From the NCBI RefSeq assembly GCF_046119375.1, contig NW_027362773.1, forward strand, positions 174,530,001-174,594,000: a stretch of 64,000 bases of DNA, read 5' to 3'. The notes below the pieces were generated by a model. That model was not told where the DNA came from and did not search any database. It saw only the letters and a list, made by a program, of their open reading frames with translations. This document shows positions 13,813 through 35,568 of this stretch, in pieces. Positions within the stretch are counted from its first letter, which is position 1, and each line of letters opens with the position of its first letter. A program made the position numbers and the translations under genes. The stretch is from Phyllobates terribilis. Its lineage: Eukaryota.

Positions 13813-14127
13813 TTTGCTGTCGCTGAAGACTCTTCATTTCCAAAGTGCTGTCAGCGGTCAATTATGGTTTGAAAGCAAATCGCCGCCGCGGCCAGAATAA
13901 CGCGCCGCTCCACAAGCCTGAAAGTATCCGGACAGATTCCTGGGACAGCGCTGCTGCTCGTGAGAGGAAAAGTGTCGCTGCATCACGGGGATTGGCGCAG
14001 CGGTATGATTTACCCCTCCAATCAGGGCATTGATCTATTGCCTACAATTATGGAAGAAAGTATTTACCCCCCAGATTTTACTTCTAAGTAATCTTATCAC
14101 ACTTTTCACACTGATTGTACCCCTAAA

Positions 14128-16140
14128 AGCAGAGCTGCAGTGTAAAGCATGGATTAGATATGGTAGAGAAGAGCTGCAGTGTAAAGCATGCATTAGAGAA
14201 AGTAGAGCAGAGCTGCAGTGTAAAGCATAGATTAGAGACAGTAGAGCAGAGCTGCAGCATGAAGCATGGATTAGATATGGTAGAGAGGAGCATCAGTGTA
14301 AAGCATAGATTAGGTACAGTAGAGAGGAGCATCAGTGTAAAGCATGGATAAGATACAGTAGACCAGAGCTGCAGTGTAAAGCATGGATTACAGACAGTAA
14401 AATGGAGCTGCAGTGTAAAGCATGGATTAGATAAAGTAGAGAGGAGCTGCAGTGTAAAGCATGGATTAGATACGGTAGAGCAGAACTGCAGTATAAAGCA
14501 TGGATTACAGACAGTAAAGCAGAGCTGCAGTGTAAAGCATGGAGTAGATATGGTAGAGAGGAGATGCAGTGTAAACCATGGATTATATACAGTAGAACAG
14601 AGCTGCAGTATGAAGCATGGATTAGATACAGTAGAAAGGAGCTTCAGTGTAAAGCATGGATTAGGTGCGGTAGAGAGGAGCTGCAGTGTAAAGCATGGAT
14701 TATATACGGTAGAGCAGAGCTGCAGTATGAAGCATGGATTACAGACAGTAGAGCAGAGCGGCAGTGTAAAGCATGGTTTACAGACAGTAGAGCAGAGCTG
14801 CAGTATGAAGCATGGATTAGGTACGGTAGAGAGGAGCTTCAGTGTAAAGCATGGATTATATACGGTAGAGCAGAGCTGCAGTATGAAGCGTGGATTACAG
14901 ACAGTAGAGCAGAGCTGCAGTATGAAGCATGGATTACAGACAGTAGAGCAGAGCTGCAGTATGAAGCGTGGATTACAGACAGTAGAGCAGAGCTGCAGTA
15001 TGAAGCGTGGATTACAGACAGTAGAGCAGAGCTGCAGTATGAAGCGTGGATTACAGACAGTAGAGCAGAGCTGCAGTATGAAGCGTGGATTACAGACAGT
15101 AGAGCAGAGCTGCAGTATGAAGCGTGGATTACAGACTGTAGAGCAGAGCTGCAGTATGAAGCGTGGATTACAGACAGTAGAGCAGAGCTGCAGTATGAAG
15201 CGTGGATTACAGACAGTAGAGCAGAGCTGCAGTATGAAGCGTGGATTACAGACAGTAGAGCAGAGCGGCAGTGTAAAGCATGGATTATATACGGTACAGC
15301 AGAGCTGCAGTATGAAGCGTGGATTACAGACAGTAGAGCAGAGCTGCAGTATGAAGCGTGGATTACAGACAGTAGAGCAGAGCTGCAGTATGAAGCATGG
15401 ATTACAGACAGTAGAGCAGAGCTGCAGTATGAAGCGTGGATTACAGACAGTAGAGCAGAGCTGCAGTATGAAGCGTGGATTACAGACAGTAGAGCAGAGC
15501 TGCAGTATGAAGCGTGGATTACAGACAGTAGAGCAGAGCGGCAGTGTAAAGCATGGATTATATACGGTAGAGCAGAGCTGCAGTATGAAGCATGGATTAC
15601 AGACAGTAGAGCAGAGCTGCAGTATGAAGCGTGGATTACAGACAGTAGAGCAGAGCTGCAGTATGAAGCATGGATTACAGACAGTAGAGCAGAGCTGCAG
15701 TATGAAGCATGGATTACAGACAGTAGAGCAGAGCTGCAGTGTAAAGCATGGATTACAGACAGTAGAGCAGAGCTGCAGTATGAAGCGTGGATTACAGACA
15801 GTAGAGCAGAGCTGCAGTATGAAGCATGGATTACAGACAGTAGAGCAGAGCTGCAGTATGAAGCGTGGATTACAGACAGTAGAGCAGAGCTGCAGTATGA
15901 AGCGTGGATTACAGACAGTAGAGCAGAGCTGCAGTGTAAAGCATGGATTACAGACAGTAGAGCAGAGCTGCAGTATGAAGCGTGGATTACAGACAGTAGA
16001 GCAGAGCTGCAGTATGAAGCATGGATTACAGACAGTAGAGCAGAGCTGCAGTATGAAGCGTGGATTACAGACAGTAGAGCAGAGCTGCAGTATGAAGCAT
16101 GGATTACAGACAGTAGAGCAGAGCTGCAGTGTAAAGCATG
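14128..16140. repeat. 39-bp minisatellite, left part (gagcagagctgcagtatgaagcgtggattacagacagta)
   Basis: 13-residue periodicity in the ORF track; diverged at the left end and homogeneous toward the Gypsy insertion. Confidence 0.97.
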
Positions 16141-17103
16141 TGACGCGCCCCTGGGCCTGTGTCGCGCTGCGTTGCGCACGCGGGAGCTTACCCGGAGCCG
16201 GATCTCTTGAGGGTTGTAGTCTCGTGGCGGTGACCCGGTCCGTGCCCAGGGAGTCAAACTGGACGGCAGTAGATGTAGTACGACTACGCCACCCGTTGAA
16301 TGCAGCTTATGGAGCTGCCGCTGCAGGACAGTCCGCTGAGGCCGGTGGATGGATGGTGCAGCGGGGATGGTATAACCCCCAACGGGAGGGGTATGGCCTC
16401 AGGGCAGCCGACGTGGATGATGGGGGTAGCAGGAACCACTCAGAGACGGTGCGGTGTAATTCAGGGTCTTTACTGGTAACAACGATAGACCCTCCCGGAG
16501 TACTTGCTAGCGAACGGGGCCTGGTCAGTCCTTGAGCAGATGGGATCTCCCCTGGCCAGGCGGAGTTGTAGGCCTCCCAAACTGACTGTACTCTTCTGGC
16601 TACCTTGCTAGAAGCGGATATAAGTAGCCCACGTCCCTGAGTGTACCGTGTGGTGCTCACCCGTATGGCCGGTGACTCGGGGCCTTCTAATGGCTTCCGC
16701 TCCACGATGGCGGTGCTGGTCCCACGCGTGTGACCGTGCCTTCGGGCTTCTGGGCCAGAGGACCTGAAATCCCCTGCCTGACGGATTCTGCTGCTGGGTA
16801 GGAGTTAGTCCCCACAGCCTCGGACTCCGGGTCCGGTAAAGAATCTTCTTAGTCAGGGCGAACTCTGCAGCTGCCAGCCCCTGACTCCTTGTAACTCTGC
16901 TGTTTCCTATGCTGCTTCTTGTCTCCACTCTCCTTGTTTGACTCACTCTGCCTCAGCCCCGGGTTTATATAGGGGAAGTTCTTCCCCTCCCAAGACTGGG
17001 CAGGAGGTGTGGCATGCACAGGATCCCTGACCAAAGGACCTCCCACCTGCTCTCAGACATAACATTACATTACTGTGGAAAACCAGACCCCTGGGGTGCC
17101 ACA
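16141..17103 (-). repeat. Gypsy 3' LTR (963 bp)
   Basis: tgtggcacc...gcgcgtca on the minus strand; PPT aggggggaa at 17104-17112. Confidence 0.96.
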
Positions 17104-17461
17104 TTCCCCCCTAGTGAAATTTAGTACTCCGGGACTAAACACATTTAGAAAAACATAACAAGGCAAAAAACATTAATAATACAATAAGAAAACATATAAA
17201 GATGGTTACGGCGTGTCCGCAACCGGGTGCAGTCTCTGAAAGAAGCAAGGTGTCCATTTCACCAACACAGGGAGACGTAACCAGGTAGGGGTCTGTCCTA
17301 CCCCGAGTCCTTAACAGTCTCTAGTCCATCCTGGGTTACGCTCCAACTATGTACAAGGATTCCCGGTCAATCCACCAAGGTTTCCTAAAAACATCTGGAA
17401 ACACAAAATTATACACAAGCAACAATACACAGATAAACATAAATAAAACTATTTTTACACT

Positions 17462-19336: not shown

Positions 19337-21598
19337 CTAGTTGGACAGACGGGCCATCCACCTCTGCTCCAGGGCACCGAGTCTTGCCGTGTCCAGGTGT
19401 ATCAACGGGTTGTTATCCGTGTATACGGTGAACCGGGAAGAAGCGAGGTAATGCCTAAAGCGCTCGGTGACTGCCCATACCACGGCCAGGAACTCTAACT
19501 TAAATGAGCTGTAATTCTCGGGGTTCCTTTCGGTGGGTCGCAGTTTTCGGCTGGCATAGGAGATTACTCGTTCTCTCCCCTGCTGAATCTGGGACAGTAC
19601 GGCTCCTAGCCCGATGTTACTGGCGTCGGTGTAGAGGATGAAGGGCTGGCTATAGTCCGGGTACGCCAAGATTTCATCCCCCGTGAGGGCCATCTTCAGC
19701 TGGCGGAAGGACTCCTCTTCTAGCTCTTCCCATTTGAAGGGCGGCTTCTGGTTCTTGGCCTTCCGGGACTGGCCTATCAGGAGGTCCTGCATAGGCGCTG
19801 CCTTTTTGGTGAAACCGGGAATAAACCTTCGGTAGTAGCCTACCAACCCTAGGAACTGCCGCACTTCTTTTACGCTGGAGGGGCTTGGCCATCCCTTAAT
19901 TGCGGTGATCTTATCGGGGTCGGGAGCCACTCCGTCAGCGCTCACCACGTGTCCCAGGTATTGCACCTTTGGTTTCAGGAGGTGACACTTGGAGGGTTTC
20001 ACCTTTAGGCCGTAACTCGCCAGAGCTTCGAACACCTCCGCCAGGTGTTTCAGGTGGTCCTCATAAGTTTTGGAGTATACGATGACATCGTCCAGGTACA
20101 ACAGGACCGTCTCAAAGTTTCTGTGGCCCAGACAGCACTCCATTAATCGTTGGAAGGTTCCTGGGGCGTTGCAGAGTCCGAACGGCATGCAGGTGAACTC
20201 GCTAAGTCCCATCGGGGTGGTGAATGCGGTCTTCTCCCGGTCCGCCTCTGCTACAGGAACCTGCCAGTACCCGCTAGTGAGATCCAAGGTAGAGAAGAAG
20301 TTAGCAGATCTTAAAGCAGCCAATGACTCCTCTATCCTTGGTAAGGGGTACGCATCCTTGTGTGTGATACGGTTGATTTTCCGGTAATCTACACACATCC
20401 TCATGGTGTTGTCTTTCTTTTTGACTAAAACTAGTGGGGCTGCCCAGGGGCTACAGCTATCCCGGATTACCCCAGCCTCCTTCATGTCTCGAAGCATCCC
20501 CTTGGCGTGTTGGTAGTGTGCAGGGGGTACGGGTCGATACCTCTCTTTTATGGGAGGATGATCTCCCGTGGGGATGTGGTGTTCTACCCCCTTGACCCGC
20601 CCAAAGTCTAACGGGTGTTTACTAAACACTCTCTCATACTCTTGAACCACCCGATAGACTCCTTGTTTCTGATGTGAGGGAGTGGAATCAGTACCCAAAT
20701 GTAGTTGCTGACACCAGTCCTCCATGTCTTTCTTAGAGCCGTTACCTTCCTCCGGGTGAGATGGAGGCAAGGGTTCCACAGATTGTATAGAATTTTGATT
20801 AGTGGTATATAATTTGGCTAGCGTGGCATACCGGGGCAGGTACACTTCCCTCTCCCCGATATTTATTATGCGAATGGGCACCCTCCCATGGCGTACATTG
20901 ACCACCCCCCGTGCTGTCAAAATGGTGGGCCTACTGTCTGAGTAAACTGGTTCCACCATTGCCTGGTAATCTCTTCCTCTCAGACCAATAGCTGCCCGGC
21001 ACCAAATCATCATTTCACTTTTTGGGGGCATGGCAATAGGAAAAGGGTCACACATTCTTACGCTACCAATCTCACCGCCGGAGAGTTCCACTTGTTGCCG
21101 TTGCATCAGTGCCCGGATCTCTTTCTGGAGCACCCGCTGCTCGCCGGAGCTGGCGTTCTTGGCAACCTGCTGTAAAAGGAAAATCACCTCTGCAAGACAA
21201 TTTTCAATTACGTTAGTTCCCAGAGTTATTTTTGGGTGACTCTCATGTTTATCAATATCTACAATGATCAGTCCCTGTGCGGCCAGTTCGACTCTACCGA
21301 TTTTGAGGGCCACCTCTTTAAATCCGATCTGTGGCACGGGCTGGCCATTGCTGGCGATGATACTCAAGTCGTCGTCAGGGTAGTGGGTAATATCCGAGTC
21401 ATTCCAGTACTGCTTGAAGAGCACGTACGGGATGGTGGTGACCTGTGACCCGGTATCCAGTAGGGCACTCATGGGAATGCCATCCAGTACCACAGGCAAG
21501 ACTGGACGTCCTCCCACATATCTGTCGCGCCAGTTCGATGGGCCTGGTGATCTTTTTCCTGGGGGTTGGCCCTCTACCCCAGGTTGTGCCCGTTTAAA
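19337..21598 (-). CDS. pol: Gypsy pol: protease, RT, RNase H (entered by -1 frameshift from gag)
   Basis: LLDTGSQ, CVDYRKIN, LDLTSGYWQ, MPFGL, YLDD, YTDAS, YTDNNPL; ends at TAG TAG (19339-19334). Confidence 0.95.
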   Translation of the reverse strand, partial: FKRAQPGVEGQPPGKRSPGPSNWRDRYVGGRPVLPVVLDGIPMSALLDTGSQVTTIPYVLFKQYWNDSDITHYPDDDLSIIASNGQPVPQIGFKEVALKIGRVELAAQGLIIVDIDKHESHPKITLGTNVIENCLAEVIFLLQQVAKNASSGEQRVLQKEIRALMQRQQVELSGGEIGSVRMCDPFPIAMPPKSEMMIWCRAAIGLRGRDYQAMVEPVYSDSRPTILTARGVVNVRHGRVPIRIINIGEREVYLPRYATLAKLYTTNQNSIQSVEPLPPSHPEEGNGSKKDMEDWCQQLHLGTDSTPSHQKQGVYRVVQEYERVFSKHPLDFGRVKGVEHHIPTGDHPPIKERYRPVPPAHYQHAKGMLRDMKEAGVIRDSCSPWAAPLVLVKKKDNTMRMCVDYRKINRITHKDAYPLPRIEESLAALRSANFFSTLDLTSGYWQVPVAEADREKTAFTTPMGLSEFTCMPFGLCNAPGTFQRLMECCLGHRNFETVLLYLDDVIVYSKTYEDHLKHLAEVFEALASYGLKVKPSKCHLLKPKVQYLGHVVSADGVAPDPDKITAIKGWPSPSSVKEVRQFLGLVGYYRRFIPGFTKKAAPMQDLLIGQSRKAKNQKPPFKWEELEEESFRQLKMALTGDEILAYPDYSQPFILYTDASNIGLGAVLSQIQQGRERVISYASRKLRPTERNPENYSSFKLEFLAVVWAVTERFRHYLASSRFTVYTDNNPLIHLDTARLGALEQRWMARLSN
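21540..21598 (-). promoter_or_regulatory. -1 ribosomal frameshift signal: U-UUA-AAC followed by a predicted H-type pseudoknot
   Basis: Heptamer at 21598-21592, 8-nt spacer, stem cctgggg/ccccagg, loop gggcc pairing with downstream ggccc; the -1 frame is the pol frame. Confidence 0.75.
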
Positions 21599-22554
21599 GA
21601 ACAGTACCTTTCCATATGTCCGGATTGATTGCAGCGGCGGCAGATGGGTCGTCCGTCCTCGCTGTATCGGTCACTGGGTCTTCCTCTGGCCGGTGGGGTC
21701 CTCCTTGGTCGACGCCACGGGATGTCCTCCGGTCCGGATGCCAGCTGGATCTTCCCTGGGGTGGAAACCTGTAAAGACTGCACAGTTCGGGTTAGCGCAG
21801 CAACGCTCTTAGCTAGCTCTTGGACCTGATGGTGTAGGTCTGGAGCCGGGTCATTGTCCAAAGCCTGCGCATCAGCTCCCACAGGCCCTGCTGACAAGGG
21901 CGCCGCCTCCTGGTAGTAAGTGGTAGTGGGGCGTCTGTGGGTCACAACGCCACCTGGTGCCGGTTCTCGGAGCACCCGGATGGCTCTGTCCTTGAACTGT
22001 GCAAAGTCCAGATGGGGATCCTGTAAGGCCATTGCCCGCAACTGGGTTCGGTGGGCATTGCAATATAAACCCTCTATAAATTGTTCAGTCAACAGCCTGT
22101 CCTCGTTTCCCACCCCATCAGGGTCGGTCTGCTTTATGGCCCTCAGGGCCTCTTGTAGGTTTAGTGCATAGTCCCTTATACTCTCATGCGCTCGCTGCTT
22201 GCACCCGTAGAATCTAAGCTTAATCTCGGCTGAGGTGCGGGTATCAAAGGTGTCCTTCAGCCGGGTTAGTATCCCTGCGACAGTCTTCCTCCCAGGTGGC
22301 CAGGATTTTACTTCCCTTTTGGCTGCCCCGGTTAGTTGGGCCACCAGGATGCTCACTTTTTGCTCTTCTGTGAGGGGGTACACCTGGAAGAGGCTATCCA
22401 GCTTTTCTCTAAAGTCATGCAGGGTATGTGACTCCCCTGAGTACTGGGGTAGCCAGGCTGCTCCCGGGATATAGGGCATGGTGAAGGGCATAACTGCAGC
22501 AGCGGTAGCGCTGGCGGGGGTTGGGGCAGTGAAGCTCTCCTCCGTATCCGACAT
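21574..22554 (-). CDS. gag: Gypsy Gag (326 aa)
   Basis: Capsid-like KQRAHESIRDYALNL and EQFIEGL; CCHC knuckle CRRCNQSGHMERYC; position between leader and pol. Confidence 0.93.
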   Translation of the reverse strand: MSDTEESFTAPTPASATAAAVMPFTMPYIPGAAWLPQYSGESHTLHDFREKLDSLFQVYPLTEEQKVSILVAQLTGAAKREVKSWPPGRKTVAGILTRLKDTFDTRTSAEIKLRFYGCKQRAHESIRDYALNLQEALRAIKQTDPDGVGNEDRLLTEQFIEGLYCNAHRTQLRAMALQDPHLDFAQFKDRAIRVLREPAPGGVVTHRRPTTTYYQEAAPLSAGPVGADAQALDNDPAPDLHHQVQELAKSVAALTRTVQSLQVSTPGKIQLASGPEDIPWRRPRRTPPARGRPSDRYSEDGRPICRRCNQSGHMERYCSLNGHNLG

Positions 22555-22995
22555 CTTCCTCCCCCCTAGTGGACCGTGGCCTACCTTGCGATGATCCTCT
22601 TCCGTAGGCCGCGGCTCCGCAGTGGATCGTCAGGGTTGAGGACCTTCCGTCGCGCTCCTGTGACGTCGGCGTCTGCTGGGCTCCTTCCAGGACCTTACGC
22701 AACGTCCGGACGTGAGGCGGGGCTTCAGTTCTCGCGCGCTTTCAGAGTCCACGCCCCTCTTCTTCCCGCGCGGCGTCCCCAAGATGGCGTCCAACGGCGG
22801 GAAAACTCCACGGATGGCGGGAAGAAGGCCGAAGATGGCGCCGGATGGCGGGAAACTTCACCGATGGCGGGAAGAAGGTAGAAGATGGCGCCGGATGGCG
22901 GGAAACCTCCACGGATAGCGGGAATCTTCACCACTGGTAAGTTTGAACAGTCTTTGCTTTTCAGGCACGCAGTACCCGGTGGTTGCGGGCACGAG

Positions 22996-23017: not shown

Positions 23018-23980
23018 TGACGCGCCCCTGGGCCTGTGTCGCGCTGCGTTGCGCACGCGGGAGCTTACCCGGAGCCGGATCTCTTGAGGGTTGTAGTCTC
23101 GTGGCGGTGACCCGGTCCGTGCCCAGGGAGTCAAACTGGACGGCAGTAGATGTAGTACGACTACGCCACCCGTTGAATGCAGCTTATGGAGCTGCCGCTG
23201 CAGGACAGTCCGCTGAGGCCGGTGGATGGATGGTGCAGCGGGGATGGTATAACCCCCAACGGGAGGGGTATGGCCTCAGGGCAGCCGACGTGGATGATGG
23301 GGGTAGCAGGAACCACTCAGAGACGGTGCGGTGTAATTCAGGGTCTTTACTGGTAACAACGATAGACCCTCCCGGAGTACTTGCTAGCGAACGGGGCCTG
23401 GTCAGTCCTTGAGCAGATGGGATCTCCCCTGGCCAGGCGGAGTTGTAGGCCTCCCAAACTGACTGTACTCTTCTGGCTACCTTGCTAGAAGCGGATATAA
23501 GTAGCCCACGTCCCTGAGTGTACCGTGTGGTGCTCACCCGTATGGCCGGTGACTCGGGGCCTTCTAATGGCTTCCGCTCCACGATGGCGGTGCTGGTCCC
23601 ACGCGTGTGACCGTGCCTTCGGGCTTCTGGGCCAGAGGACCTGAAATCCCCTGCCTGACGGATTCTGCTGCTGGGTAGGAGTTAGTCCCCACAGCCTCGG
23701 ACTCCGGGTCCGGTAAAGAATCTTCTTAGTCAGGGCGAACTCTGCAGCTGCCAGCCCCTGATTCCTTGGAACTCTGCTGTTTCCTATGCTGTTTCTTGTC
23801 TCTACTCTCCTTGACTGACTAACCCTGCCTCAGCCCCGGGTTTATACAGGGGAAGTTCTTCCCCTCCCAAGACTGGGCAGGAGGTGTGGCATGCACAGGA
23901 TCCCTGACCAAAGGACCTCCCACCTGCTCTCAGACATAACATTACATTACTGTGGAAAACCAGACCCCTGGGGTGCCACA
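23018..23980 (-). repeat. Gypsy 5' LTR (963 bp)
   Basis: Identical to 16141-17103 except in one ~86-bp patch. Confidence 0.96.
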
Positions 23981-24941
23981 CATGGATTACAGACAGTAGA
24001 GCAGAGCTGCAGTATGAAGCGTGGATTACAGACAGTAGAGCAGACCTGCAGTGTAAAGCATGGATTACAGACAGTAGAGCACAGCTGCAGTATGAAGCGT
24101 GGATTACAGACAGTAGAGCAGAGCTGCAGTATGAAGCATGGATTACAGACAGTAGAGCAGAGCTGCAGTGTAAAGCATGAATTACAGACAGTAGAGCAGA
24201 GCTGCAGTATGAAGCGTGGATTACAGACAGTAGAGCAGAGCTGCAGTATGAAGCATGGATTACAGACAGTAGAGCAGACCTGCAGTATGAAGCGTGGATT
24301 ACAGACAGTAGAGCAGAGCTGCAGTATGAAGCATGGATTACAGACAGTAGAGCAGAGCTGCAGTATGAAGCATGGATTACAGACAGTAGAGCAGAGCTGC
24401 AGTATGAAGCATGGATTACAGACAGTAGAGCAGACCTGCAGTATGAAGCGTGGATTACAGACAGTAGAGCAGAGCTGCAGTATGAAGCGTGGATTACAGA
24501 CAGTAGAGCAGAGCTGCAGTGTAAAGCATGAATTACAGACAGTAGAGCAGAGCTGCAGTATGAAGCGTGGATTACAGACAGTAGAGCAGAGCTGCAGTAT
24601 GAAGCGTGGATTACAGACAGTAGAGCAGAGCTGCAGTATGAAGCATGGATTACAGACAGTAGAGCAGAGCTGCAGTATGAAGCATGGATTACAGACAGTA
24701 GAGCAGACCTGCAGTATGAAGCGTGGATTACAGACAGTAGAGCAGAGCTGCAGTGTAAAGCATGGATTACAGACAGTAGAGCAGAGCTGCAGTATGAAGC
24801 GTGGATTACAGACAGTAGAGCAGAGCTGCAGTGTAAAGCATGGATTACAGACAGTAGAGCACAGCTGCAGTATGAAGCGTGGATTACAGACAGTAGAGCA
24901 GAGCTGCAGTGTAAAGCATGAATTACAGACAGTAGAGCAGA
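23981..24941. repeat. 39-bp minisatellite, right part
   Basis: Same unit as 14128-16140, resuming in register after the TSD. Confidence 0.97.
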
Positions 24942-25623
24942 CTGAGATTATAATGAGAAAGGATTTCTGACTACGTCGGCCTCCAGCAGACAATGCAGCT
25001 GCACTGGGGCCATTGATCTTAGTTGTGTCCTGATAAAGCAGAGCTGCAGTGTAAAGCATGTTGAAGAACCAGAACAGGAGACTGAGATTCTGATGCGACT
25101 CAAGGTGGATTTTAGTCTTGCACCGACTTCAATAGACGATGTAACTCATTGATGCTTCTTAATAAAGCAGAGCTGCAGTGTAAAGTATGGGCGACAGCAG
25201 CAGATCAGCTTTCTGCCGTGTTGCAGCTCAGATGGAATCATTGATCCAGCAGACGGATGATGAGGATCCGTGTGGTGGTTGTAGTGGTTCTGTGTCTGTG
25301 CGGGATCGGCGGCGTCCAGCGCAGATATCGCCCTGTTCTCTCCCTGCCGCCTGCGCTGCGCATTGTAGCCTCTCATGAAATTCATGATCTTCCCTCATCG
25401 CACAGTACAGGGGCCGTGAATATCCGCAGAGTGCGCAGTGTGAACAGCGACCGGCGGTGAGAAAAAACATAAATGCTCCGCCATAGAGAAAGCATCGGTC
25501 AGACCTCAGAGCCTGAAAGGGTTAAAAGAATGGGACAAACACCTCGGTCGCCATACTGATTTCATGCGGTATGGCAGCTTTATAGGAACGCTATTATCTG
25601 CCTTCTATGTGGCGGTATTATAT

Positions 25624-26143
25624 TGTCGGGGTAAAAGAGAATATATATATTTGTAACTTTTATACTTTTGTAACTTTTATACGTTTTTTTGCTAATGTAC
25701 TAACCACCATTTTGTGTCTTATAACAATAAGCTTTCCTTGCTACGTAATACTCAAATCGAAACTTAAACTAAGACAGTTCCAGTGTTGCCAAGATTTATT
25801 TCAGAGAAACGAAACAAGATTATAAGCTGACGGCTGCAATATCTGCCCAGAGACTGAGATAAGGAGATGTGGACCAATCAGGAGTGGCTAGACACTGGAC
25901 TTTCATGGCTTACCCCGCTCCGGACAACCTCTTTCCCCTCCCATTATGTAGTGTATTTAGATTTGTGCATGTAAAAAATAAATTCAGAACATTGCTGAGG
26001 ACGTTGTCTGTAGTAGCCTTCTGAGCATGCTCTGAGCTTGAACCAGCTTGTTGTCTGACTCATTCTTTGAATGGTTGACCCATGCTCATAGTTTGAATTT
26101 GGAGTGACTGGAGGACGAGTGGAATGTCATCACGACCCCCACA
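25624..26143 (+). repeat. ERV 5' LTR (520 bp)
   Basis: tgtcggggt...ccccaca, direct repeat of 32032-32549. Confidence 0.95.
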
Positions 26144-26145
26144 AA

Positions 26146-26163
26146 TGGCGCCCAACGTGGGGC
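26146..26163 (+). promoter_or_regulatory. Primer-binding site, tRNA-Lys1,2 (TGGCGCCCAACGTGGGGC)
   Basis: Matches the canonical Lys1,2 PBS, 2 nt after the LTR. Confidence 0.92.
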
Positions 26164-26626
26164 GTGGCTAGCGGTACGCCGCCCTCCCGGACCCATATTG
26201 CTGATTTCCCTGGTGGTGACCGCGGTGGCTGAATTTGAGGCCTGATCAACCTCCATCGAACACGGTAAGTTGAGATGTATTTTATATGTCTCACTTGCCT
26301 GTGTGTCAGCCGCAGCGGTTCCTGTTGGGTTGTCAGGTTGGATCTGGGTGGGTGACCGGTCGAGTGGTGAGACCTTGGGCGTCCCGCACCACGTCCTGAA
26401 CCAGCAAGTGTTAAAACGAGTGACGTCGCATGCCTGCGCGTGCTCGTGTGCACACCACCTCCTCCTCCCCCGGTCACTGTACTTTTCTTAGATAGCTGCC
26501 TCCCGTAACTGATAGTCGAGGTTTCAAAGCATTCCTGAATTGTAGTGTAAGGGAGAAAGAATCTGTGACGAATTGAGGAGTACTCTTCGTCTAACACAGA
26601 AACTGCTGTAAAGTCAAGGTTAGGAA

Positions 26627-26942
26627 ACAGTGTATTGAGGTGTCTCTACACTGTCGGGTGGTACCGTGGTAGGAAAGCAGATAGATTGAGGTGTCTCTCT
26701 ATCTCAACAGTGTATTGAGGTGTCTCTACACTGTCGGGTGGTGCCGTGGTAGGAAAGGAGATAGATTGAGGTGTCTCTCTATCTCATCAGTGTATCGAGG
26801 TGTCTCTACACTGACGGGTGGTGACCTGTAGTCAGGGTGCCGTGGTGAGTCGCACTGTAAAGTCGCCATTCAAGGCTAGGAAAGGAGTTAGATTGAGGTG
26901 TCTCTCTATCTCATCAGTGTATTGAGGTGTGCTCTACACTGA
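26627..26942 (+). repeat. Seven tandem hairpin-forming repeats in the ERV leader
   Basis: Core ttgaggtgtctc enclosed alternately by cagtgta/tacactg and agataga/tctatct stems. Confidence 0.8.
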
Positions 26943-27251
26943 GGAGTGGCGACCTGTGGACTGCACCAGTGATCTGAGTCGCGACAGATCATTGCATTCT
27001 ATAAGAAAATGTTGTGTATATTTAAATTTGAAAGATCTCGTAAGTTGTGGAATGCTGCTGTAGGAGTTAAGCCAATTAGTGGAGTTACGGGAAGGCAAGA
27101 AGGCAAGAAGAATGTTAGGAATTTGTATAACATGATAAGCTTATCCAGTACAGGCAGGCTTTAGTTTTCAGTGTAGAAAGAATGTGTGATACAGAAGTTG
27201 GGAAAGTTGGGTGAGGATTTTTGCACCAGACTCAAGCACATCTTAGAGTAG

Positions 27252-28615
27252 ATGGTGCAGGGGGGAACAGAGAATGCCGAGCCTTTGTTCGGATACATGA
27301 AAGCTGCAGAATGTGATTTGTTATGTGCCCCCAAAATGGCCGTTGCACCTTTGATGCCTGTCACTACACTGAGCCCTCAGTCACCACCCTATAATGGCGC
27401 CGACGCCAAATTACCGGAGGGGTGGACGTGTCGGGTGTGTGGAGAGCAAAACCCACTCTGGGCGGGCCGCCCATGGCACGATGCCCAGTCTGCCCCCAAG
27501 AATAATCCCACCCCCACTCCCACCCACTCCCACCTCCTCCCTCCAACGGCCATTTTGCTACACCTCTTACTTGTTGTGGGCGGCCCGGAAAGCCCCAATC
27601 CGGCCTATATCCACTACTAGATCCGTCCGGTGCATATTACCAGCCACCAGCACAGGTGGAAAAGCCCGCAGTCCCAGAGCACCCATCTGAAACTAATGTG
27701 ACACCCTCTGCTCCAGTCCACGATGCTGAGACGCTTCCCCTGTTTCCTATGGGAGTCACCCACAACCCTGGGGATATCCTCCTCAACCCCCCAGAATTTC
27801 AGGCCAGACTGCTCTCCCTCCGCCAACATACTGTTACTCAAGACGATATGGAGCCAGATGAGGGATGGGCTCAAGATACTCCAGCCCCCCCCCCCCGTCT
27901 TTACCCCATACGTCTCCTATGGCATCCTTCACCCCACATCCATTACCCGTACTCCGGCCCTTGCTCCAAGCAACTGCTGAAAGAGCCCCACCCCCCAGCC
28001 CCTCAGAAGTCTGGGACCCCTGCCGCTCCCGGAATCTAGTAGACCCATCAGGACGCCCTGTCACTCTGTCAATAGGCTATGGTGACATCCTTACACATCG
28101 GGTGGGGGCCATAGTCAACCCTGCAAACACCTGTATGAGCCATGTTGGAGGATTGGCTCGCAAAATTTCCCTTGCTGCTGGTTCTACTCTGGCTGCAGAA
28201 TGCCAGGCTCACTTAGCCGAAAACGGAGAGCTTTCAAAAGGCCATGGTTTCCACAAAAGCAGGATCTCTTAGTACGTATGAATCCGGCCTAGAATACATG
28301 AAACAGTTAAAGGCCTGGGCTCAGGATCGCTTGTCAGATCAAGCTGGGTCTGTACAAGATGTTCAACAAGACCCTGATGAATCTGTGGAAAGATATGCTG
28401 CAAAACTCAGCATGCATTTTGAGGATCTTGGATACAGTCCTCACGTCAAGACGCAGGCCGCCCTGTTGGTTCAGGCCCTGGTAAATGGCCTACAAGACGC
28501 CCTCAGAGATGAAGTCCTGAGAGTACGGCCCGAGATTCGTTCTTCTTCTTTCAACGACGCGGTGGATATCGTTAAAGCTTTCCATAAATCAATGCTAAAA
28601 ATGGAAAAGGATACT
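27252..28615 (+). pseudogene. gag: Frameshifted ERV gag remnant: Cys motif, Pro-rich region, macrodomain, capsid C-terminal part
   Basis: WTCRVCGEQN; GDILTHRVGAIVNPAN; MHR-like QQDPDESVERYAAKL and ALVNGL; spread over several frames. Confidence 0.75.
28060..28272 (+). pseudogene. Macrodomain (ADP-ribose-binding fold), N-terminal part, inside gag
   Basis: VTLSIGYGDILTHRVGAIVNPANTCMSHVGGLARKISLAAGSTLAAEC matches GDI...IVNAAN..L.HGGGVA.AI..AAG..L..EC; it continues after a frameshift as G-MVSTKAGSL. Confidence 0.85.
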
Positions 28616-31582
28616 AAGCCAAAGAAGAAAACCGCTCCGGGAGAGCCTCCAAGATACCGGTTGGTTCAGGATCTCAGAGCCGTCAATGCAGCTACCATTT
28701 TAGAAACTCCAGTGGTACCCAACCCAAACACCCTTTTGTCTCAGGTGCCTCCAACGGCCACCTTGTTTACGGTGTTAGATCTGGCCAACGCTTTCTTCAG
28801 TATACCCTTACATGAAGATTCGTGGTTTCTTTCTGCCTTCACCTTTCAAGGAGCACAGCTTACATGGACCAGGACTCCGCAAAGAGCCCAGAACTCTCCT
28901 AACCAATTCACTCATTCTATGAAGTCTATTCTGGAGCCATGGGTTCAAGAGAACCCTCAGGTCACCTTTCTACAGTATGTGGATGATCTTTTACTCTGTG
29001 GCACTGAAGAAAATTTGCCAGAGATGTCAGCATCCCTTCTCTGGTTTCTTCACTCAGCTAACTGTAAAGTCTCGAAAGGCAAAGTCCAATGGTGTCTGCC
29101 CAAGGTCATTTTCCTCGGACATTGTATATCACAAGGTGCTAGACATCTGACTGAAGAAAGAAAACAAGCCATCATGGATATCACCTTCCCAACCACCTAC
29201 TCCGCTATGCAGACTTTCCTTGGCCTCATCACTTACTGCAGGCAATGGATCCCTGATGCCTCAAACCTCATGCAACCTCTGTACGACTGTCTCAAGGATG
29301 AAGGCTCAGTTTGGCTTCATGCTGAAGATCCACGTGTTTCTCATCAACACAGACTATGTTTTGACCGCCTTAAACAGGCTGTTGTCTCTGCCCCGGCCTT
29401 GGGCTTACCAGACTATACTCAGCCATTTCACCTTTTTGTCTCGGAATCGGAAGGTCATGCCTCTGGAGTTCTAGCACAACGCTATGATCATAAGTATCGG
29501 CCTTTGGGCTACTACTCAGCCCGCCTGGACCCTGTCGCCCGAACTGCCCCCATGTGCCTTAAGGCGGTCCACGCTGCTCACATTCTCCTTGACAAGTCAG
29601 CTGATATCGTCCTTGGCCATGATCTCTCAGCTGTTCTGCAACAAACATCTCCGAAAGATCTCACCAACCAAAGACACCTGCGGCTGCAGTGTTCCCTATT
29701 GTTGCCCTCCAATATAACATTTACCAGATGTCTGACTATCAATCCTGCCACTTTGCTTCCACCTTCTAGGGGGGAAGGTGAAGAGGGTGAAGATCCATTG
29801 GTGGAACCTCATGATTGTATAAAAATTTTGCAGGAAGAGACTTCTGCTCCAGAGAATATGGTGGCACATCCGCTCGCAGACCCTCAAGGGAAGTTCCACA
29901 CGGGATATGCTGTCACAACGGACCTAACAGTCCTCAAGGCTGAAGCTCTACCACCATATATGTCTGCACAAGAGACTGAACTTGTGGCTCTCACAGAGGC
30001 CTGCCACCTGGCAGCAGGAACAAAGGCGAATATGTATATACCGATTCCAGGTATGGACATGGAATTTGCAATGATTCTGGACTCTTGTGGAAGTCTAGAG
30101 GATTCATCACAGCTGCAGGTACACCAGTGAAACATGTCTCATGGATTAAGGCCCTAATGAAGGCCCTGGAACTACCCATTCAGGTTGCTGTTATCAAGGT
30201 CAAGGCTCATGGAAGACTAGAATCCAGAGAAGCCAGGGGCAACCACCTAGCTGACCAAGCAGCCAAGACTGCAGCAGTGGAGAATGTGTCATCAAAGTGG
30301 CAGGAAAAGGAAGAAGAGATGGGAGAGACTCTGCAAACCGTAGCTGTGGCGCTCACTAGAGCAAGAGCCAAAGAACAGCCGGCGGAAGACCATACAAGTC
30401 CAGCGGAGACACGAGTGGAATCCAGGGGGGTCAGGATGCCTAAAGAAAAATTGTGTGAGGAACAAAGGAAGACCCCCACTGAAGAAGTCAAGCAATGGAA
30501 AGCGGCAGGAGCTGTGCTGGCAGGTCGCAAAGATTCAAAGGTCAACTCGACTCTTTACCAAGTGGATGGGAAGCCTTGCTTGCCTAGACGCATGTACTCA
30601 GCTGTGGCAGCATGGGCTCACGGGCCTACACACAGAGGAAAGAATCAAGCTTTGGCATGTATCAAGAAACTGTACTTTGCACCCAGAATCTCTTCCACTG
30701 TGACTGCATACTCAAAATCCTGCTCTGTCTGCGCTACCTGCAACCCAACGTGTATGGCACGGGTCCCTCTTCAACATCTGGCTAAACCAGACTACCCTTG
30801 GCAGAGAATACAAGTCGACCATATCCAAATGCCTAAAGCAGGAAAATAGGAGTACGTTTTGGTAGCCGTGGATATGTTCTCAGCCTGGCCCGAGGCCTAC
30901 CCGGTTGTCAACATGACTGCTAAAGTCACAGCCAAGAAACTGATCACCGAAATTGCCTGCAGATTTGGAGTTTCCCCAAGTCATAGAATCGGATCAAGGA
31001 CCAGCTTTCACAGCAAATATCTATGAAGAACTCTGGAACATGTTGGGAACAGATTTGGGCCTCCACACTCCATACCATCCTGCCAGTTCAGGCAAAGTGG
31101 AGAGAATGAATTCCACACTCAAGACCCAGCTCTTGAAAATGACCCAAGATCATCCCCTCCCCTGGCCCGACCTACTCCCCATAGTATTGTATCATATCAC
31201 ACACACTCCTCAGGCCAAACATGGGCTGACTCCCTATAAAATTTTGTTTGGGACCCCACCCAAGATAGGAGAGATTAGGCCCCAAGAGTTGTCTGAAACA
31301 CATGATAGAGTGGTAAAATTTGTGATTGTTTTGTCTAGAGAATTGACTAACACCCGCTCTCCAGTATCTGCTTCTCTCCCAGAATCTACAGGTGATGCAG
31401 TACATGATTTCATCCCAGGCGATCTAGTGTATGTGAAGAAGTTTGTCCGGAGAGACTGTCTCCAGCCGCGGTTCGAGGGACCGTACACTGTGCTTCTCAC
31501 CACCCCGACGGCTCTGAAGCTTGAGGGCAAGAGCACCTGGATTCACGCCTCCCACTGCACGAGAGACAGAACGAGTCTATAA
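28616..31582 (+). pseudogene. pol: ERV pol (RT lacking its N-terminus, RNase H, integrase) with frameshifts and one stop; no protease
   Basis: YRLVQDLR, LDLANAFF, YVDD, SAQETEL, HGPTH...[35 protein letters not shown]. Breaks near 30030, 30847 (TAG) and 30960. Confidence 0.92.
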
Positions 31583-31585
31583 AAG

Positions 31586-31812
31586 ATGACTACCTTCTTC
31601 TATATCCTTTCCATATGCTTACTGTCTGTCCCAGGGTGGACAGCTACCACACAGGGGTAGATACCTCCTTTTTCTCAAGTTGGTTGGGAGGGCTCAAGGG
31701 ATTTCTCCAACAAGTTTGTCTAGTAATGGGAGGTCTATTAGTATTGGGCCTGGTGGTCCTGTGCTGCATAGTCCCCTTATATAGAGAAATATACTCCTTT
31801 GAACAAGCCTGA
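31586..31812 (+). pseudogene. env: env remnant: signal peptide joined out of frame to the membrane anchor
   Basis: MTTFFYILSICLLSVPGWTATTQG* directly after integrase, then SFFSSWLGGLKGFLQQVCLVMGGLLVLGLVVLCCIVP in another frame. Confidence 0.7.
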
Positions 31813-32031
31813 CCAGACCCCCTCATGATAAAGTTCAATTGAAAGATTCAGTTTAGGATCAGTTGGGAGAACTCCATGTGTCACCCAGGATAGGGCTCGA
31901 TTGTCTGGGGGGCGTCCCATAAGGGGGCAGCTTCTAAGATGATTGGGTGAAGAAATCCACCTCCCCTCTCCCCACACATGGACAGTCTCAAAGGCCCCGA
32001 AGCAAGGGAAAGCTTAGTGTTTAGGGGGGAA

Positions 32032-32549
32032 TGTCGGGGTAAAAGAGAATATATATATTTGTAACTTTTATACTTTTGTAACTTTTATACTTTTTTTGCT
32101 AATGTACTAACCACCATTTTGTGTCATATAACAATAAGCTTTCCTTGCTACGTAATACTCAAATCGAAACTTAAACTAAGACAGTTCCAGTGTTGCCAAG
32201 ATTTATTTCAGAGAAACGAAACAAGATTATAAGCTGACGGCTGCAATATCTGCCCAGAGACTGAGATAAGGAGATGTGGACCAATCAGGAGTGGCCAGAC
32301 ACTGGACTTTCATGGCTTACCCCGCTCCGGACAACCTCTTTCCCCTCCCATTATGTAGTGTATTTAGATTTGTGCATGTAAAAATAAATTCAGAACATTG
32401 CTGAGGACGTTGTCTGTAGTAGTCTTCTGAGCATGCTCTGAGCTTGAACCAGCTTGTTGTCTGACTCATTCTTTGAATGGTTGACCCATGCTCATAGTTT
32501 GAATTTGGAGTGACTGGAGGACGAGTGGAATGTCATCACGACCCCCACA
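32032..32549 (+). repeat. ERV 3' LTR (518 bp)
   Basis: Direct repeat of the 5' LTR, preceded by PPT aggggggaa. Confidence 0.95.
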
Positions 32550-33349: not shown

Positions 33350-34022
33350 TAGCATTATGAGGACACTATATGGGCATTATAGGCATTATATGGGCATTAT
33401 GAGGGCATTATATGGGCATTATGAGGGCATTATAGGCATTATATGGGCATTATGAGGGCATTATAGGCATTATATGGGCATTATAGGCATTATATGGGCA
33501 TTATGTGGGCATTATGTGGACGTTATGTGGACGTTATCAGGGCGTTATGTGGGCGTTATGTGGACGTTATCAGGGCGTTATGTGGACGTTATCAGGGCGT
33601 TATGTGGGCGTTATGTGGACGTTATCAGGGCGTTATGTGGGCATTATGTGGGCGTTATGTGGACGTTATGTGGGCATTATGTGGGCATTATGTGGACGTT
33701 ATCAGGGCGTTATGTGGGCGTTATGTGGGTGTTATGTGGGCGTTATGTGGACGTTATCAGGGCGTTATGTGGGCGTTATGTGGACGTTATCAGGGCGTTA
33801 TGTGGGCGTTATGTGGACGTTATCAGGGCGTTATGTGGACGTTATCAGGGCGTTATGTGGGCGTTATGTGGACGTTATGTGGACGTTATGTGGGCATTAT
33901 GTGGGCATTATGTGGGCGTTATGTGGACGTTATCAGGGCGTTATGTGGGTGTTATGTGGACGTTATGTGGGCATTATGTGGGCGTTATGTGGACGTTATC
34001 AGGGCGTTATGTGGGCATTATA
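33350..34022. repeat. 10-12-bp low-complexity tandem repeat (gggcattata grading into gggcgttatgt / ggacgttatca)
   Basis: Read directly; it generates three overlapping repetitive ORFs. Confidence 0.92.
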
Positions 34023-34471: not shown

Positions 34472-35568
34472 GGCCACGGCCCCACTATCAGTATAAGGCC
34501 ACGGCCCCACTATCAGTATAAGGCCACGGCCCCACTATCGGTATAAGGCCACGGCCCCACTATCAGTATAAGGCCACGGCCCCACTATCGGTATAAGGCC
34601 ACGGCCCCACTATCGGTATAAGGCCACGGCCCCACTATCGGTATAAGGCCACGGCCCCACTATCGGTATAAGGCCACGGCCCCACTATCAGTATAAGGCC
34701 ACAGCCCCACTATCAGTATAAGGCCACGGCCCCACTATCAGTATAAGGCCACAGCCCCACTATCAGTATAAGGCCACGGCCCCACTATCAGTATAAGGCC
34801 ACGGCCCCACTATCAGTATAAGGCCACGGCCCCACTATCAGTATAAGGCCACGGCCCCACTATCAGTATAAGGCCACGGCCCCACTATCAGTATAAGGCC
34901 ACGGCCCCACTATCAGTATAAGGCCACAGCCCCACTATCAGTATAAGGCCACGGCCCCACTATCAGTATAAGGCCACAGCCCCACTATCAGTATAAGGCC
35001 ACGGCCCCACTATCAGTATAAGGCCACAGCCCCACTATCAGTATAAGGCCACAGCCCCACTATCAGTATAAGGCCACGGCCCCACTATCAGTATAAGGCC
35101 ACGGCCCCACTATCAGTATAAGGCCACAGCCCCACTATCAGTATAAGGCCACGGCCCCACTATCAGTATAAGGCCACAGCCCCACTATCAGTATAAGGCC
35201 ACGGCCCCACTATCAGTATAAGGCCACAGCCCCACTATCAGTATAAGGCCACGGCCCCACTATCAGTATAAGGCCACAGCCCCACTATCAGTATAAGGCC
35301 ACAGCCCCACTATCAGTATAAGGCCACGGCCCCACTATCAGTATAAGGCCACAGCCCCACTATCAGTATAAGGCCACGGCCCCACTATCAGTATAAGGCC
35401 ACAGCCCCACTATCAGTATAAGGCCACGGCCCCACTATCAGTATAAGGCCACGGCCCCACTATCAGTATAAGGCCACGGCCCCACTATCAGTATAAGGCC
35501 ACGGCCCCACTATCAGTATAAGGCCACGGCCCCACTATCAGTATAAGGCCACGGCCCCACTATCAGTA
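34472..35568. repeat. 25-bp minisatellite, 44 copies (ggccacggccccactatcagta + taa)
   Basis: Period 25; the last copy is the left TIR of the MITE at 35547. Confidence 0.96.

Follow-up and report, generated by a model that had tools for sequence, protein, structure and literature searches.

The 64,000-nucleotide stretch of Phyllobates terribilis DNA analysed here (the window) contains a provirus at 25624–32549, all features of which lie on the + strand. Its LTRs are 99.0% identical, and the 4-base target-site duplication ATAT is present on both sides, just before the 5' LTR (TG...CA; 25624..26143) and just after the 3' LTR (32032..32549). The near-identity of the LTRs, which over 520 aligned columns show three mismatches and two gaps, and the ATAT flanks indicate that the insertion is young. 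A primer-binding site was located from the sequence at 26146..26163, and we take it to be of the tRNA-Lys type. The proviral leader includes imperfect short tandem repeats (26620–26960), which differ between copies.

The gag region begins with a decayed matrix-like N-terminus interrupted by stops (27012..27400); across 27012–27545 the window is 59% identical to one of the undeleted copies described below. Next come a RanBP2-type zinc finger of which only the first half is left (27423..27464; PF00641, E 0.006, below the cut-off), complete in undeleted copies, and a Pro-rich region with late-domain-like motifs (27548..28059), whose reading frame shifts close to a C run at ~27890. The N-terminal half of a macrodomain, with the motifs GDI, NPAN and HVGG, occupies 28060..28244, and the half bearing the GIF loop is missing. 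A 689-nt deletion, marked by a 9-base near-repeat (8/9 identical) at 28236..28244, removed everything from the C-terminal half of the macrodomain through the linker to the N-terminal half of the capsid. The C-terminal part of the capsid, identified by alignment to undeleted copies, lies at 28245..28620. A second deletion of 1029 nt, with an 18-base near-repeat at 28621..28638, removed the nucleocapsid, the protease and the start of RT. Such near-repeats at both breakpoints would fit template switching by RT. The frameshifted pol remnant (28622..31576) encodes RT (YVDD), RNase H and an integrase with an MLV-type C-terminal domain, and env is reduced to the signal peptide and TM tail (31583..31822), with ~1.55 kb gone. 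Loose ends at the 689-nt junction were also found in contigs from two of four public runs, and the undeleted stretch was spanned by one contig from a public run of another organism.

Outside the provirus, the window holds a gypsy-like element on the - strand (19337–22629), in which both gag and pol have long open frames, and long tandem arrays at ~14030–17200, 23800–24950, 33360–34020 and 34480–35500, one with a 39-base unit in ~76 copies.

The half macrodomain in the window

The peptide read from 28060 on the + strand, GDILTHRVGAIVNPANTCMSHVGGLARKISLAAGSTLAAEC, matched Pfam Macro (PF01661) over positions 1–43 of 118 with 22.5 bits (cut-off 22; E 1.1e-4). Its top PDB sequence matches were macrodomain 1 (MD1) of PARP14 (E 5e-6) and of PARP9 (E 7e-6). 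The initial annotation, made from the window alone, had placed a macrodomain from 28060 onwards, between the Pro-rich part of gag and a capsid remnant. The Pfam match bears out the assignment, and the position is the same in the window provirus and in undeleted copies. Of the motifs then listed, GDI is present, and those given as NAAN and HGGG are in fact NPAN and HVGG.

The continuation of the domain had been read as resuming after a frameshift with G-MVSTKAGSL, then cut by a deletion, and the feature had been extended to 28272. This reading was ruled out. In undeleted natural copies MVSTKAGSL lies in mid-capsid, at about residue 725 of 961 in Gag, and the 689-nt deletion both joined it to the macrodomain and itself produced the change of frame; the macrodomain therefore stops at the junction, 28236–28244. 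The resemblance of MVSTKAGSL to the macrodomain motif T.AG.L is due to chance. Pattern searches based on a macrodomain continuing as G-MVSTKAGSL gave no matches, which fits the capsid identity of this peptide. Lacking the C-terminal half of the domain, the window copy cannot have the activity considered below.

Undeleted copies of the provirus

In a DNA search of the genome, at least 1151 first-pass candidates for the deleted form were found; 40 were scored and 30 loci examined, and all 30 shared the truncation. A protein search of the genome, in which 150 matches were scored, gave eight in open frames of >500 aa, all of which were examined. In each of the eight, the macrodomain, linker, capsid and CCHC nucleocapsid are encoded in a single frame, which also includes the matrix-like N-terminus and the RanBP2-type finger (PF00641 in an undeleted copy, E 9e-4, below the cut-off) in five copies and the finger alone in a sixth. 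The order in natural copies is thus matrix-like region, RanBP2-type finger, Pro-rich region, macrodomain, linker, capsid and CCHC nucleocapsid. The macrodomain of one undeleted copy matched Pfam Macro over positions 1–113 of 118 with 85.5 bits. The Pro-rich region contains a 23-residue repeat whose number of units differs from copy to copy.

The pol frame is unbroken in five of the eight copies and the env frame in three, and a single in-frame TGA separates gag from pol. In several copies gag, pol and env share one reading frame with single stops between them. The proposal that the parent virus carried the macrodomain in its Gag polyprotein is thus upheld by all eight undeleted copies, and the domain is general in the family, hereafter family A. 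A one-off insertion of host sequence was ruled out by the presence of the domain in the undeleted copies, in a second ERV family and in other frogs.

When the deleted C-terminal half was used as the query, at least 337 candidates were found in the genome, as compared with at least 1151 for the deleted form. Copies without half of the domain thus appear to outnumber undeleted ones, which implies that the macrodomain is not needed in cis. The counts suggest that the window copy belongs to a deleted, non-autonomous lineage that was likely copied in trans.

The RT of family A is closest to those of the MLV/XMRV type (217 bits, as compared with 96 for foamy virus), and env includes TLV_coat, CxxC, a furin site and CX6CC. 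Given the RT, the in-frame stop between gag and pol, and the gamma-type env, the element is a class I (gamma/epsilon-like) ERV. The region following the macrodomain had no Pfam match, and a sequence search gave no PDB matches; a database search with this region found three proteins only. The predicted fold of the whole capsid region of a natural copy gave the MLV capsid as the top match (E 3e-4), followed by other retroviral capsids, which places the macrodomain within a true retroviral Gag. The likeness of its Gag to that of the Rhinella marina ERV (RMERV) suggests that family A belongs to the RMERV/Xen1 clade of anuran epsilon-like retroviruses (PMC12690878), and a stop between gag and pol is among the features described for RMERV and ZFERV in PMC13517186.

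A second family and related Gag proteins in other frogs

A Pfam Macro search of the 10.6 Gb genome produced at least 3001 candidates, of which 150 were scored and 30 examined. A second ERV family (family B) accounted for 27 of the 30 loci, two were host PARP14-like exons and one stayed unclassified. Family B has a complete macrodomain at the same place in Gag, with the motifs NAAN, HRGG and, in loop 2, GMY. The two families are ~28–30% identical in Gag and 40–68% identical in pol, and gag is followed by pol in all three longer family B stretches. The two host exons are large, lie ~95 kb apart at 190.9–191.0 Mb and have macrodomain 1 intact. A third strong Macro match is found at 191.38 Mb, and the same megabase holds three family A matches.

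Database searches matched the Gag of RMERV and a gene model of Ranitomeya variabilis. Further gene models with a Gag-type domain were found in Ascaphus truei, R. imitator, Anomaloglossus and Engystomops, the last with a diverged C-terminal part of the macrodomain only. Spread between frogs by infection is possible, and the Ascaphus matches hence date nothing. A homolog search with the half domain found one stand-alone macro protein. Among the best 150 of 7518 matches, no Gag with a macrodomain was recognised from fish, salamanders or amniotes; the list is crowded by multi-macro PARPs and is therefore no proof of absence outside frogs.

XP_075208031.1 from Anomaloglossus, named 'PARP9-like', clusters with the Gag domains and has, at its end, the motif with which the family A capsid begins; it is likely an ERV fragment. 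CAJ0918343.1 from Ranitomeya imitator has a Gag-type macrodomain fused to a LINE-type endonuclease, likely two adjacent elements joined by the gene caller.

Relationships of the macrodomain

By sequence, the undeleted macrodomain scored highest against PARP14 MD1 (98 bits), followed by PARP9 MD1 (84), MACROD1 (55) and coronavirus domains (34). A model of the undeleted domain was predicted to have a macro fold (pLDDT 94), with PARP14 MD1 (3q6z, TM 0.89) and PARP9 MD1 as the best structural matches. The domain is thus of the macroPARP MD1 type and not of the kind to which the initial annotation had likened it, the macrodomains of corona-, alpha- and hepeviruses. Close kinship to the coronavirus and alphavirus domains was not supported; in sequence and structure searches PARP14 and PARP9 MD1 came out ahead of MACROD1/2 and well ahead of the coronavirus domains.

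A FastTree phylogeny of 391 domains placed the Gag-type domains together with weak support. An IQ-TREE analysis (LG+G4; bootstrap not settled) covered 76 domains, comprising 38 near ones (after removal of 11 redundant), 22 wider MD1 domains, 12 random outer domains and four MD2 domains. In this tree the ten frog Gag-type domains formed one clade (95/95), which belonged neither to the PARP9 MD1 clade nor to the PARP14 MD1 group and sat at an open fork. The phylogeny that had been called for was thereby obtained for PARP9 and PARP14, the tree being set without MACROD1/2 and viral macrodomains. The tree does not support a recent origin of the domain from PARP14 or PARP9 of the frog itself, as it places the Gag domains outside these groups, including the PARP14-like exons of this genome. 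A single old capture would be the simplest reading.

Active-site residues and selection

The hydrolysis signature given in PMC10221186 comprises an Asn or Ser and a Gly flanking loop 1, and a hydrophobic and an aromatic residue in loop 2; PARP14 MD1 and PARP9 MD1 are reported as shown hydrolases (PMC10499325, PMC10221186). This signature is present in eight of ten Gag-type domains when Met is allowed in loop 2 and in six of ten when it is not. Among the 30 best undeleted copies of family A, the domain is open in all, and the D, N, H, last Gly of loop 1 and GIF are invariant. These copies, six of which overlap with the eight in frames of >500 aa, were chosen by likeness to the intact C-terminal half, and their intactness is therefore partly a matter of ascertainment.

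The motif corresponding to NAAN is NPAN in family A and RMERV and NAAN in family B, with both Asn residues kept throughout. Its first Ala is replaced by Pro in seven of ten Gag-type domains, as it is in 13 of 162 non-Gag domains with the hydrolase signature and 29 of 219 without it. This Ala is described as facing the phosphates, and a bulkier residue is predicted to weaken binding by SARS-CoV-2 Mac1 (PMC7729036).

The variants shared among family A copies include seven non-synonymous and ten synonymous ones in the macrodomain, corresponding to a pN/pS of 0.24 (small counts, transitions uncorrected). The p values were 0.004 against the site ratio and 0.037 against singletons. By region, pN/pS was 0.08 in the capsid, 0.19 in the matrix, 0.24 in the macrodomain, 0.24 in the Pro-rich region and 1.05 in the linker. 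As judged by these ratios, the macrodomain is under purifying selection, yet no more than its upstream Gag neighbours within the family. Between families, its conservation is nearly that of the matrix and capsid and above that of the Pro-rich region and linker, and Gag proteins with an overall identity of only ~30% both retain the active-site residues. Purifying selection of this kind fits an eraser and a reader of ADP-ribose alike.

Discussion

Given that the hydrolase signature is kept and that the nearest solved relatives, PARP14 and PARP9 MD1, are active enzymes, an anti-PARP function of the Gag macrodomain is plausible. Judging from sequence and a predicted model, we slightly favour the reading that it is a protein de-ADP-ribosylase packaged in the virion, which would remove marks set by antiviral PARPs. 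The domain, encoded in frame in Gag downstream of the Pro-rich region and upstream of the capsid, would go back to a single ancestral capture from a donor resembling macrodomain 1 of a macroPARP. It would be packaged at one copy per Gag, be released by the viral protease as a putative separate product and, either while virions assemble or once the virus has entered the cell, remove Glu/Asp-linked ADP-ribose. Stoichiometric packaging, release by the protease and the comparison with p12 follow what is generally known of class I retroviruses.

The same position in Gag can be read differently. Where the frog Gag has its macrodomain, between the Pro-rich region and the capsid, MLV has its chromatin-tethering p12, and the macrodomain could be an ADP-ribose reader that anchors the incoming viral core to ADP-ribosylated proteins of chromatin or stress granules. 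A Pro in NAAN, shared with a macroH2A domain as well as with the 29 non-Gag domains lacking the signature, is in line with such a role. We nevertheless consider a reader unlikely, since the catalytic Asn, the Gly of loop 1 and the aromatic residue of loop 2, which are lost in the readers MD2 and MD3, are kept across distant families, the nearest structures are catalytic MD1 domains, and family B retains NAAN. Less probable still is an enzyme acting on a nucleic acid or metabolite, the candidates being packaged RNA, reverse-transcribed DNA ends and ADP-ribose-1''-phosphate, with help from the RanBP2-type finger. PARP14 is described as acting beyond protein, Gag binds genomic RNA, and the upstream finger, of a class described as binding single-stranded RNA, is conserved (55–62% identical to three relatives and 41% to a fourth); but the finger is separated from the macrodomain by ~260 residues in the one copy mapped, and nothing favours such a substrate over protein.

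That the captured domain is now a mere passenger or folded spacer, its ADP-ribose role gone, is very improbable. Deleted copies are abundant, the Engystomops model has only a diverged C-terminal part, and loop 2 of family B differs (GMY), as would be the case for a dispensable domain. Against this stand the retention of active-site residues between such distant Gag proteins, a conservation near that of the matrix and capsid, and the low pN/pS of the macrodomain.

The closest known system is RMERV, reportedly described by Russo et al. in 2018. Its Gag (UniProt A0A2U9K508 / AWS20966.1) has the same order of RanBP2-type finger, macrodomain, capsid and one CCHC motif, and its identity to family A is 61% in the matrix, ~52–53% in the macrodomain (TM 0.95), 64% in the capsid, 34% in the Pro-rich region and 22% in the linker. 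Like family A, RMERV is described with UGA at the gag-pol junction (PMC13517186). Identity of ~43–45% to family A over Gag beyond the N-terminus makes it a separate family. The record is named just 'Gag protein' and carries a precomputed Pfam Macro match. In fish, macro-domain ORFs are reported from epsilon-like ERVs of teleosts (Basta 2009, as cited in the review PMC4977317), in line with the initial annotation; these are likewise class I retroviruses, but the review speaks of 'additional open reading frames', whereas the frog domain is part of Gag. With these ORFs and the RMERV match on record, the domain is less without precedent than had first been implied. AnERV9 (bioRxiv 10.1101/2024.07.05.601823), compared by description and not by sequence, is a frog epsilon-like ERV whose Gag has RanBP2-type fingers and one CCHC motif, and the main text of that preprint contains the word 'macro' 0 times.

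Outside retroviruses, PARP14 and PARP9 MD1 (PDB 3Q6Z, 3VFQ, 9QYD) are the best matches in sequence and structure and have the same catalytic signature, but are only ~34% identical to the Gag domains, which form their own clade and have Pro in NAAN. The domains of coronavirus (Mac1), alphavirus (nsP3), hepevirus, rubella virus and iridovirus share the MacroD-type fold, and presumably the same counter-PARP logic. Those of corona-, toro- and alphaviruses and rubella virus are 17–24% identical to the Gag domain (TM 0.66–0.80), and one iridovirus protein is 26% identical (TM 0.87). In RNA viruses the macrodomain belongs to the non-structural replicase, whereas that of the frog ERVs lies in a structural polyprotein, and the frog domain was probably acquired independently.

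Hence, the counter-PARP macrodomain as a viral device, macro domains in fish ERVs and the Pfam match of RMERV Gag are already known. No description of a macrodomain inside an amphibian retroviral Gag was found in the full-text literature, a scope outside which most subscription journals fall, or in the accessible portions of PMC12690878, the AnERV preprint, PMC8450580, PMC9723728, PMC4245714, PMC13517186, PMC9503650 and PMC7729036; the available text of two of these, surveys of viral ADP-ribose biology (PMC9503650, PMC7729036), does not name a retroviral macrodomain. What is apparently new is a lineage-wide, Gag-embedded domain of the MD1 type in frog retroviruses, present in databases but apparently undescribed. 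It is possible, and we put it forward tentatively from sequence comparisons, that a clade of amphibian retroviruses found from the tailed frog Ascaphus to toads and poison frogs made one capture of a PARP14/9-type eraser and packs it in every virion.

The finding also bears on annotation: thousands of macrodomain matches in a frog genome (at least 3001 candidates here) can be ERV Gag, and at least one 'PARP9-like' gene model (XP_075208031.1) appears to be so. If the proposed function is correct, this would be the first ADP-ribosylhydrolase in a retroviral structural protein, and would count as evolutionary evidence for mono-ADP-ribosylation as a brake on retroviral replication; the example of retrovirus restriction in the sources consulted, ZAP/PARP13, is described as catalytically inactive. 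The Gag macrodomain is small and predicted to be well folded, and thus suited to test. A hydrolase-type macrodomain kept in Gag by purifying selection points to a conflict between ADP-ribosylation and retroviruses.
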